Origin: a virus
Length of the DNA: 64,000 nucleotides
Strand: one strand, 5' to 3'
IMG/VR virus record: IMGVR_UViG_3300028025_006190
Span: 12,978 to 76,977 of that record
A model generated the notes under the pieces. It was not told where the DNA came from. It searched no databases and was given only the letters and a program-made list of their open reading frames with translations. The position numbers and the translations under genes were made by a program. Positions 44,585-48,008 of this stretch are shown here, one piece after another. Within the stretch, counting starts at the first letter, position 1, and each line of letters opens with the position of its first letter.

Positions 44585-45742
44585 ATGAGCTACATTAATA
44601 CCCTTTCCGGGTATCGCATGAGCGATGACTGGGCCGACCATATTGCCCGTGGATCGCGGGGCGGTATTGACTATGCCACTGGAATGAATACCCCAATTCC
44701 TGCCCCGATTGCTGGTCGCCTGGAGAACCGCCCCGATAACGGTAATGGGTTTGGAAACTACATTCGCTTCCACCACGGCAACGGGTTCATTGACGAGTAT
44801 TTGCACCTCAACAGTTTTGTTGCCGAAGGAAACTACGCTCAGGGGCAGGTTATTGGGTACACGGGAAATACCGGAAATAGCACCGGACCCCACGTACACT
44901 GGCACCTTATTGATCCAAGTGGTCGTCGGGTAAACCCTCTTGACTATGTTCAGGGTGGTTCAGGTGGAAGCACGACTTCCTCTGGAATCGGTGCGAGTAT
45001 GGCAGCTGCTCAGCAGATACTTGCAAATGTTGGACTCTATAGCGGTGTTGTTGATGGTATTTTTGGTCCTAAGTCTTGGAGAGCCACTCAGACGTGGTTG
45101 GCCAAGTATGGACTATATGACGGAGCAATTGATGGAATTCCTGGACCGAAGACCTACCGAGGGGTGCAGCTATACGGTCAAAAGAATGGTAACTACGGCC
45201 CTCCCGGGGTAGTTGATGGAGTTCTTGGTCCCCTGTCGTGGGCTGGATTTGTTCAGTCTTTGAAAGAAGATACGGCGGCACCTGCCCCAACCCCACCACC
45301 AGCGCCAGTAAAGCCAGAGCCTGTAAAGCCTGAGCCTGTTGTGCCTCCTGTAGTGCCAACTCCACCAGTCCCGGAAAAACCAGAGGTTGTTGTCCCAGAA
45401 AAACCTGAAAAGCCCGCAAAACCCACTCGCCCTACACGACCATCTAAGCCCACTAAACCTGTAAAGGATCCAGTAATGCCAGAAGTAAAGCCACTCCCTG
45501 ATGCCGCAAATACTGCCGCTCACGACGCTCTTGGGATCTTGATCCCGAAGGCAAAAAACCGCAAGATTGCATATGCCGTCTACGGTCTGATCTCTCTAGT
45601 TGTAAGCAACGCTGCAGTTGGTGTTGTTGCTTCTGGAACGGAAGCTCCCCTGTGGCTTATCATAGGTCTTGCCGTTGTCGGTAACCTGGGTGCCCCGTTC
45701 GCAACACTCGCTATCGCGAATGCCGGCAACAGCCAGAAGTAA
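44585..45742 (+). CDS. Endolysin (M23 peptidase + PG-binding repeats + Pro-rich linker) fused to a holin-like two-TM domain
   Basis: GIDY, YLHL and GNSTGPHVH motifs; three DG(I/V)xGPxS/T repeats; C-terminal RKIAYAVYGL...WLIIGLAVV. Confidence 0.85.
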   Translation: MSYINTLSGYRMSDDWADHIARGSRGGIDYATGMNTPIPAPIAGRLENRPDNGNGFGNYIRFHHGNGFIDEYLHLNSFVAEGNYAQGQVIGYTGNTGNSTGPHVHWHLIDPSGRRVNPLDYVQGGSGGSTTSSGIGASMAAAQQILANVGLYSGVVDGIFGPKSWRATQTWLAKYGLYDGAIDGIPGPKTYRGVQLYGQKNGNYGPPGVVDGVLGPLSWAGFVQSLKEDTAAPAPTPPPAPVKPEPVKPEPVVPPVVPTPPVPEKPEVVVPEKPEKPAKPTRPTRPSKPTKPVKDPVMPEVKPLPDAANTAAHDALGILIPKAKNRKIAYAVYGLISLVVSNAAVGVVASGTEAPLWLIIGLAVVGNLGAPFATLAIANAGNSQK

Positions 45743-45750
45743 GCTAAAAT

Positions 45751-45799
45751 AAAAAAGCAGACCCGACCACATTCGTGACCATCGGGTCTGCTTCTTTTT
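45751..45799. terminator. Intrinsic terminator, possibly bidirectional
   Basis: AAGCAGACCCGA/TCGGGTCTGCTT stem flanked by A- and T-runs. Confidence 0.75.
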
Positions 45800-45870
45800 G
45801 TCGCTCAAGTGTTACGGTAGCACGACGGTCTCCAAAACCGTGAGACTAGGTTCAATTCCTAGGAGCGGCG
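45800..45870 (+). tRNA. tRNA-Trp(CCA)
   Basis: Acceptor GTCGCTC/GAGCGGC; anticodon arm ACGGT-CTCCAAA-ACCGT; T-arm CTAGG-TTCAATT-CCTAG. Confidence 0.88.
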
Positions 45871-45915
45871 CAATTTGACTACATTGTTTCTAAATTTGTG
45901 CTAAAGTATTTATAA

Positions 45916-46085
45916 CGCAAGATCGACGGATCAAGCGGAGTGATGGCTGAATGTGTCTTTCCAGTAAGGACCTAAAGCACACCTCGGGTTAGCGCCCTGC
46001 CTTAGCGGGTAAAAGAGGTGGTCGGGTGCGGTACATACTGTATTGCTGGGACCCCGTGGTGGTAAAACGCAATCCACCCACTCAA
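45916..46085 (+). ncRNA. Candidate structured ncRNA of about 170 nt
   Basis: Extended -10 upstream, terminator downstream, multiple nested helices and no credible ORF. Confidence 0.55.
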
Positions 46086-46087
46086 CT

Positions 46088-46123
46088 AAAAACCCCCGGG
46101 ATCTTTTCCTCCGGGGGTTTTTT
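46088..46123 (+). terminator. Intrinsic terminator
   Basis: AAAAACCCCCGG/CCGGGGGTTTTTT. Confidence 0.8.
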
Positions 46124-46145
46124 ATGTGTGTTACTGTTTACAGAA

Positions 46146-46219
46146 CGGGATGTAGCTCAGCTTGGTAGAGCGCTGCGTTTGGGACGCAGAAGTCGCAGGT
46201 TCAAATCCTGTCGTCCCGA
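46146..46219 (+). tRNA. tRNA-Pro(TGG)
   Basis: Canonical cloverleaf; anticodon arm CTGCG-TTTGGGA-CGCAG. Confidence 0.95.
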
Positions 46220-46220
46220 C

Positions 46221-46296
46221 GGCGGTGTAGCCCAATGGCAGAGGCACACGGTTTAGGTCCGTGCCAGTGTGAGTTCGAATCTCATCACCGCTACCA
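46221..46296 (+). tRNA. tRNA-Leu(TAG) with short variable loop and encoded CCA
   Basis: CACGG-TTTAGGT-CCGTG anticodon arm; GTTCGAATC T-loop; ends ACCA. Confidence 0.9.
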
Positions 46297-46320
46297 AAAG
46301 TCTTATGTTAGACTTCTGCC

Positions 46321-46485
46321 ATGCAGGAGAACGCTATTAAGATCCTTATTCGAGATGAGATGGTTGAGGCCGGGATTGTCGTTGCAGAGGGGACAATGCT
46401 CACCTATCTATATGAGGGTCGAGAATATCTAGTCATGATGAGCGTCGTAGACATTACGGATTGGGACAATCAAGATGACGAATGA
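46321..46485 (+). CDS. 54-aa hypothetical protein (leaderless, not in ORF track)
   Basis: TGT-TAGACT-N6-ATG. MQENAIKILIRDEMVEAGIV...DNQDDE; overlaps the next gene. Confidence 0.55.
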   Translation: MQENAIKILIRDEMVEAGIVVAEGTMLTYLYEGREYLVMMSVVDITDWDNQDDE

Positions 46486-47453: not shown

Positions 47454-47526
47454 GCCTCCTTAGCTCAGTTGGTAGAGCGCGATACTTGTAATATCGATGT
47501 CATCGGTTCGATTCCGGTAGGGGGCC
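47454..47526 (+). tRNA. tRNA-Thr(TGT)
   Basis: CGATA-CTTGTAA-TATCG anticodon arm; GGTTCGATTCC T-arm. Confidence 0.92.
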
Positions 47527-47530
47527 CAGA

Positions 47531-47602
47531 CCCCTCGTAGCTCAGCGGAAGAGCGTATGGTTTCTACCCATCCGGCCGGGAGTTCGAATCTCTCCGAGGG
47601 GA
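47531..47602 (+). tRNA. tRNA-Arg(TCT)
   Basis: CCCCTCG/CGAGGGG acceptor; ATGG-TTTCTAC-CCAT anticodon arm. Confidence 0.88.
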
Positions 47603-47605
47603 CAC

Positions 47606-47679
47606 CGGGAGTTAGCTCAGCCGGTTAGAGCAGCGGACTCATAATCCGTCGGTCGCGGGTTCAAGTCCCGCACTCCTGA
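47606..47679 (+). tRNA. tRNA-Met(CAT), probably elongator (Ile2 not excluded)
   Basis: GCGGA-CTCATAA-TCCGT anticodon arm; GGTTCAAGTCC T-arm. Confidence 0.9.
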
Positions 47680-47681
47680 CA

Positions 47682-47726: not shown

Positions 47727-48008
47727 ATTCTGGATCACCGCCTATGTAGTTGCCAGTTAACCTTTCGTTGGGTGAGTTTGAACATTGGAATCATTCAGCT
47801 CCTAACTGGCCTCGCGGCCATCTCATACAAGATACTTCTATTTTAGAAGCTATTAAACTGTTCTAGATCTTCTACTGTGACGATGAGATCCCGGTGATTT
47901 AGAATAGAAGTAGCCAAGGCGCAGCTCCCCTGCTGCCCGGCATTGTGAATTTCGCTACCTCACAAAAGCTAAGCCCCCTCTTGAAAATATATTGGAGGGG
48001 GTTTAGTG
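47727..48008. ncRNA. Candidate multibranch structured RNA of about 280 nt
   Basis: 14-bp closing stem, internal nested stems, further hairpins and no ORF. Confidence 0.45.

Follow-up and report, generated by a model that had tools for sequence, protein, structure and literature searches.

The plus-strand RNA encoded at 45916-46088 of the window, by which the whole 64,000-nucleotide stretch of viral DNA analysed here is meant, is, as judged from its sequence, a divergent member of the manA family (RF01745); it is compact, with about 170 nt, and helix P6 is missing. The locus is likely a free-standing gene for a stable small manA RNA that, by homology with its solved relatives, would be able to self-assemble. 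This reading is built on the observed fold, homology, genomic layout and loop complementarities. The manA motif goes back to Weinberg et al. 2010 (PMC2864571; Rfam RF01745) and, in the sixteen years since then, has been listed as a cis-regulatory element of cyanophages and a candidate riboswitch. Instead, manA RNA appears to have a gene of its own, which runs from promoter to terminator or is cut from tRNA arrays, a habit common to the cage-forming RNAs ROOL and GOLLD. The family as such is already known; what is added here is a compact sub-threshold form with twin loops, the promoter-to-terminator layout, a series of covarying L3-P8 contacts, and carriers among cultured actinophages.

When 45920-46088 is compared with the Rfam manA model under E-value reporting, a match spanning model positions 1-192 is obtained with 48.6 bits and an E-value of 2.3e-11, and the same match is recovered when the whole virus record is searched. 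An earlier, sequence-only reading had described the RNA as an unclassified non-coding RNA. This description does not survive a full-length match to a known family, although the score lies 6.6 bits below the gathering score of 55.2 bits, which is a curation cut-off and not a biological definition. In effect, at curated thresholds Rfam lists only six tRNAs in the window, with manA not among them, and a standard annotation run would overlook the RNA because it scores below the cut-off. In the alignment, the window RNA lacks the model hairpin at positions 100-116 (P6) and has one extra A following the closing stem. The homology is also reciprocal. A covariance model built solely from the window's clade (R1; three sequences and a hand-set structure of 53 pairs) finds canonical cyanophage manA copies with 44-61 bits and E-values of 1e-10 to 1e-15, including copies that are above the Rfam manA cut-off. 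A tRNA or tmRNA identity was tried separately and rejected, as ARAGORN reports nothing at 45916-46088 and no tRNA, tmRNA or clan model matches at E up to 10.

Table 1. The manA RNA and its neighbouring features in the window; the extended -10 is a putative element.
Feature	Position	Strand	Remarks
tRNA-Trp	45800-45871	+	44 nt upstream of the RNA
Promoter-like extended -10	45897-45907	+	TGTG-N-TAnnnT type; ends about 8 nt before the RNA
P1, 5' hairpin	45916-45937 (inner 45921-45932)	+	GACG tetraloop at 45925-28; from the Rfam alignment
P2, closing stem	45938-45942 / 46079-46083	+	98.2% paired; 5/5 pairs covary
Junction after 5' strand of P2	45943-54	+	conserved manA core
P3	45946-45978	+	3-bp outer stem and hairpin 45955-71; loop L3 at 45961-65
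P4, stem	45980-85 / 46015-20	+	encloses P5 and P7
P5	45986-97	+	UAGC cap at 45990-93
P7	45998-46011	+	UAGC cap at 46003-06
P8, long hairpin	46024-46055	+	outer stem 46024-27 / 46052-55; inner stem 46028-35 / 46039-46; 3' bulge 46047-51
P9	46058-62 / 46074-78	+	5 bp; 11-nt loop 46063-73; abuts 3' strand of P2 (46079-83)
Intrinsic terminator	46088-46123	+	GC-rich stem of about 13 pairs and T run; -24.8 kcal/mol for the downstream 70 nt
tRNA-Pro and tRNA-Leu	46146-46296	+	downstream of the terminator

The helix numbers in Table 1 were deduced by matching the contacts named in the preprint on solved manA RNAs (bioRxiv 10.64898/2026.07.01.735769) to the Rfam consensus, where the GNRA hairpin corresponds to L6 and where L5 and L7, and likewise L8 and L9, are complementary. 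All helices that had been listed from the sequence alone are found at their places, and the minimum free energy (MFE) fold and the Rfam manA alignment agree on them; the MFE fold of 45920-46125 (z = -2.2) gives these helices together with the terminator hairpin. Two helices had been overlooked, namely the hairpin within P3 and the outer stem of P8. The RNA shares with manA the order of the helices, the GACG loop of P1, the closing stem and its junction, P3, P4 with its inner hairpins, the long P8, and P9, which has 5 bp and a loop of 11 nt. The junction is of the manA UGRCUGAAU type with one A inserted. P9 is 100% paired in the alignment of relatives and the ends of its loop (UA...AAU) are invariant, while the inner part of P8 varies from clade to clade. 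P4, P5, and P7 are present in the window RNA and covary among the relatives, but the GNRA hairpin P6 is absent. This hairpin does not seem to be obligatory, because relatives of similar length (about 170 nt) with scores of 58-69 bits, above the Rfam cut-off, also lack it.

Relatives were obtained by scanning viral contigs with a pattern drawn from two conserved manA elements and scoring the matches with the Rfam model. This first scan yielded 30 copies that are full-length, measure about 170 nt, and share the architecture; 21 of them are above the Rfam cut-off. A second pattern, based on the twin loops discussed below, gave 46 further viral stretches, nearly all of them genuine, and 80 metagenome stretches, of which 38 were genuine. 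A search with R1 gave 80 copies, 56 of them distinct, with canonical cyanophage manA included. In the model-based alignment of these 56 distinct relatives, 94.2% of the cells are paired, compared with 63.2% after shuffling and 38-48% with slid partners; these percentages are generous because the alignment was fitted to our own structure, a bias that the slid and shuffled controls share only partly. None of 500 shuffles reaches the observed pairing, and both sides change at 50 of the 53 pairs, as in all seven pairs of P1. An independent alignment of 29 sequences with MAFFT and RNAalifold recovered P1, P3, P5, P7, and P9, and 20 of the 25 pairs that it predicted show two-sided changes. It missed P2, P4, and P8, which were out of register, and the R1 alignment was used instead. 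The description of the RNA as a genuine structured non-coding RNA is upheld by helices that are present in the window and covary in 56 distinct relatives.

The sequence-only reading also placed the RNA in a transcription unit of its own. This is supported by a -10-like element before the RNA and a terminator after it, a layout that is repeated in free-standing relatives. The extended -10 is a consensus match with equivalents in free-standing relatives, but it is not listed by a sigma-70 scan. A TTGACT occurs at 45875-80, but it is 21 nt away from the extended -10. Nor does the -10 string behave as a recurrent phage promoter, with 11 matches within the window at up to 3 mismatches when 16.6 are expected. 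The strong terminator, in turn, is fully borne out and appears in the MFE fold; a simple scanner passed it over because its loop is longer than 8 nt. A -10-like element also lies 8-12 nt before P1 in the relatives L067, L098, L148, L160, L164, and L165. In L067, L098, L160, L164, and L165, the RNA is followed by a GC-rich hairpin and a T run; in L148, the hairpin lacks the T run, and a tRNA lies 33 nt past the RNA. Given these sequence elements, transcription of the window RNA is probably driven by its own extended -10 and stopped by the terminator, with the ends of the RNA predicted in the same way. L160, L164, and L165, with their members, form a twin-loop sub-clade that is far from tRNAs and has a clean promoter-RNA-terminator unit; P1 carries GACA in L160.

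The RNA is part of a tRNA region located between a gene for an M23/PG-binding lysin and the genes for DUF3310, ThyX, and RNR. Three further tRNAs are found at 47454-47680, and six tRNAs are present in the window according to ARAGORN and Rfam. Proximity to tRNAs is common among the relatives. A same-strand tRNA lies at 20 nt or less from an end in 31 of the 56 distinct copies, and in 15 copies both ends are flanked in this way; when the distance is widened to 1.5 kb, the number rises to 47. In metagenome contigs, 25 of 33 copies are adjacent to a tRNA (0-20 nt), 10 of them at both ends. No copy of manA that was examined needs a downstream ORF. Consequently, as the copies are flanked by tRNAs or free-standing and independent of any ORF, the cis-regulatory label is contradicted and a self-released stable RNA is favoured; in contrast to the 5' UTR location attributed to manA, the window RNA appears to be a free-standing gene. 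Some minor observations concern the same region. A strong terminator hairpin follows the lysin gene at 45742-45800 and ends about 5 nt before tRNA-Trp; as no obvious promoter is left, transcription of this tRNA may come from read-through or from a promoter embedded in the terminator region. The gene-free and hairpin-rich stretch at 47727-48008, between the tRNAs and the RNR locus, gives no Rfam match at gathering and no R1 match. An exact 29-nt string of the window's clade, sought as a trace of expression, is absent from the metagenome contigs, and the general twin-loop pattern occurs in the metagenome only in contigs of at least 1 kb, none of them transcript-like. Finally, a twin-loop copy in an uncultured phage contig is preceded on the same strand by a tmRNA gene (L130:2764-3165), called by ARAGORN at a distance of about 1.1 kb.

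The window belongs to a 77-kb IMG/VR record that is estimated to be 45% complete. For its primase/helicase, the identity is 47-48% to the counterpart in Microbacterium phages of about 190 kb and 52% to that of a lake Actinomycetia phage, in the latter case over the C-terminal 62% of the protein. Because of this resemblance, the host is probably an actinobacterium, and the carrier would differ from the cyanophages or Photobacterium in which manA is otherwise found. A BLAST search with the window RNA gave 13 records from Corynebacterium vitaeruminis phages of the C3PO group, where the matching stretch is unannotated. The C3PO copy reaches 47.2 bits with Rfam and 78.5 bits with R1, and only 0-3 nt separate it from its neighbours, tRNA-Trp and tRNA-Ser(GCU); tRNA-Trp, which directly precedes it, is also the upstream neighbour of the RNA in the window. 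In this copy (L185:2420-2610; NC_042085 43011-43197), L3, L5, and L7 all carry the loop string, and a single exact 8-nt complement of it is present in P8, where it pairs with the third copy, the one in L3. Microbacterium phage Pumpernickel has a 232-nt twin-loop version between tRNA-Asp and tRNA-Glu, and Rhodococcus phage Francesca has a manA-type copy between tRNA-Met and tRNA-Lys. The Pumpernickel RNA (L193:1501-1732; NC_073468 83910-84141) carries an insert of about 60 nt after P3 and occupies an unannotated gap of 240 nt in an array of at least 12 tRNAs. Pumpernickel is one of the nearest large Microbacterium phages; no match at E 0.01 or better was found in Zooman, Cece, or the Actinomycetia phage DSL-LC01, and for the L039-type clade the cultured phages gave no match. 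The family therefore extends to actinophages that infect Corynebacterium, Microbacterium, and Rhodococcus; these phages are cultured and tractable, with deletion and expression tests being routine, and their copies are unannotated.

There are two types of loops when the copies are read. In the cyanophage type, the two inner hairpins carry UGGU and AACC, which are complementary, while in the other type both carry UAGC. The observation of identical loops on two hairpins proved correct for the window RNA, where P5 and P7 have the same UAGC core. The twin type, with UAGC in L5 as well as in L7, is represented by 41 distinct copies that come from more than 10 clades and in which the stems of these loops covary. 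Some of the twin-UAGC copies score 58-65 bits and are above the Rfam cut-off, so this subtype lies partly within the Rfam boundary; at least one loop string of the twin type is present in the part of the 2010 manA alignment that was consulted. A further arrangement is seen in the clade of L072 and L142 (IMGVR_UViG_3300017911_002034), where P5 has the AACC type and P7 the UGGU type, which is the reverse of the canonical order, and where P1 is without the GACG loop. This swap argues for the pairing of L5 and L7.

Members of the family solved by cryo-EM are reported to build cages of RNA only, namely decamers composed of pentamers and a 60-mer, in which the kissing loops are L5-L7', L8-L9', and L3-L8' (bioRxiv 10.64898/2026.07.01.735769), evidence that was obtained in vitro, for other members than the window RNA, in a single preprint of 2026. 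The L5-L7' kissing loop is described for both solved pentamers and the intermolecular L3-L8' one for one solved form (bioRxiv 10.64898/2026.07.01.735769). In the window RNA, the mutual Watson-Crick complementarity of L5 and L7 is limited to the self-complementary GC step. Thus, as the complementarity of the interface common to both solved pentamers is absent, the assembly of twin-loop RNAs may differ or fail. By reading, an L8-L9 complementarity of the A0F1 type is not conserved in the window's clade either. In contrast to L5-L7, a contact between L3 and the 3' side of P8 is retained. L3 (45961-64) is complementary to P8 (46046-49), with six pairs if one G-U is allowed, which corresponds to the L3-L8' contact of the one solved form. 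At least 4 contiguous Watson-Crick pairs are found in 35 of 36 non-redundant copies, with at least 12 different letter pairs, and the mean number of such pairs is 5.2 within a copy versus 3.4 between copies. From this pattern, the L3-P8 contact is evidently kept by covariation, and the sequences are compatible with its being intra- or intermolecular alike.

The loop of P1 is also conserved, being GACG in 54 of the 56 distinct relatives. GACG and UAGC each hold a self-complementary dinucleotide step, CG in the former and, analogously, GC in the latter, so a homotypic loop-loop contact is conceivable for either, albeit as speculation. In retroviruses, dimerisation between RNAs involves GACG tetraloops of the dimer linkage regions (PMC516450), an analogy with P1 that concerns one small motif only. 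When the 56 aligned copies were read for an internal partner of the UAGC loops, no conserved complement was seen in L1, L9, or the junctions. A tentative proposal is that the twin UAGC loops mark a distinct manA subfamily in which the L5-L7' contact is replaced either by a homotypic contact of two GC pairs or by docking sites for an outside partner. If the homotypic contact were true, the geometry or the stoichiometry of the RNA assembly would be changed. If the loops were docking sites, for instance for a tRNA anticodon loop, the assembly would be a multivalent trap or carrier in the tRNA economy of the phage. In any case, a widespread subtype in which the best-documented assembly loops are swapped for two identical and invariant ones would be a natural experiment on how assembly is specified.

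Other explanations of the locus have to be weighed against a free-standing gene. Rfam assigns manA the type 'Cis-reg', and the motif was rated as a riboswitch candidate by Weinberg 2010 (PMC2864571). Accordingly, the window RNA could be a cis-acting leader with a ligand-sensing fold, the terminator at 46088-46123 being the platform that controls read-through into tRNA-Pro and tRNA-Leu; it comes directly after the fold, and tRNA genes do lie downstream. Nevertheless, there is no ORF for such a leader to serve, as the terminator and then tRNAs come next, and, by reading, the terminator and the conserved fold do not overlap in a manner that would allow alternative pairing. Moreover, in 15 of the 56 relatives there is no room for an expression platform, because tRNAs are 0-13 nt away on both sides, while L160, L164, and L165 have the terminator but no same-strand tRNA within 1.5 kb. 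A leader is for these reasons very improbable. As for a chance fold or a functionless degenerate remnant, the modest single-sequence z-score (-2.2) would agree with it, but the strong covariation in the relatives, the conservation in distant phages (three cultured groups included) and the significant match to a curated family reduce its probability to a negligible level.

The proposal that the RNA mimics a tRNA or an anticodon loop, or acts as a decoy, was made together with the remark that its start resembles the 5' end of class II tRNAs. Stated in terms of the loops, two U-turn-like loops would offer UAG/AGC to a tRNA-directed nuclease, to a tRNA-binding factor, or to an anticodon loop. That the UAGC of the two loops does not vary in more than 10 clades, on stems that covary, suits an outside partner better than a kissing contact, which would drift, and RNAs of the manA family do reside in tRNA arrays. 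For instance, tRNA-Ser(GCU) comes immediately after the RNA in C3PO and Darwin, and its anticodon loop is, by reading, complementary to the loop of the RNA over 6 positions with one G-U. This complementarity may be a coincidence, however, and tRNA-Ser does not adjoin most of the twin-loop copies. In addition, neither ARAGORN, which finds the six tRNAs elsewhere in the window, nor the Rfam tRNA model recognises the RNA, which leaves both the mimicry and the class II likeness without support. The loops are of 4-6 nt and not of 7, and the homologous loops of canonical manA pair between subunits (bioRxiv 10.64898/2026.07.01.735769). Thus, a mimic or decoy is improbable.

The preferred reading, a free-standing gene for a manA RNA, suggests how the RNA might work. 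The window copy would be a transcript of its own unit, while most relatives, which are a few bases from tRNA genes, would be released by tRNA-processing enzymes. The conserved core of P2, P3, P4, P8, and P9 would fold as in the solved manA RNAs, and copies would then join via loop contacts into closed oligomers. Of these contacts, the one between L3 and the 3' side of P8 would be retained, and L5-L7 would be replaced by the two identical UAGC loops. By this homology, the window RNA probably self-assembles. The manA preprint makes no mention of tRNA and is silent on biology (bioRxiv 10.64898/2026.07.01.735769). Candidate roles during infection would be the enclosure or the sequestration of a partner, as proposed for ROOL and GOLLD. 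Both are encoded by phages, frequently next to tRNA islands, and in vitro they assemble into closed cages made of RNA only (PMC12286853). They are similar to the window RNA in genomic context and presumed mode of action, but they are 3-5 times larger and unrelated to it in sequence and fold. In effect, the Rfam models of ROOL and GOLLD have no match in the window at gathering, nor, with E up to 10, in 45700-46400. In the tRNA cluster of phage T4, the stable RNAs C and D (species 1 and 2) are released with the tRNAs; by description alone, they are like the window RNA in being small stable RNAs within a phage tRNA cluster.
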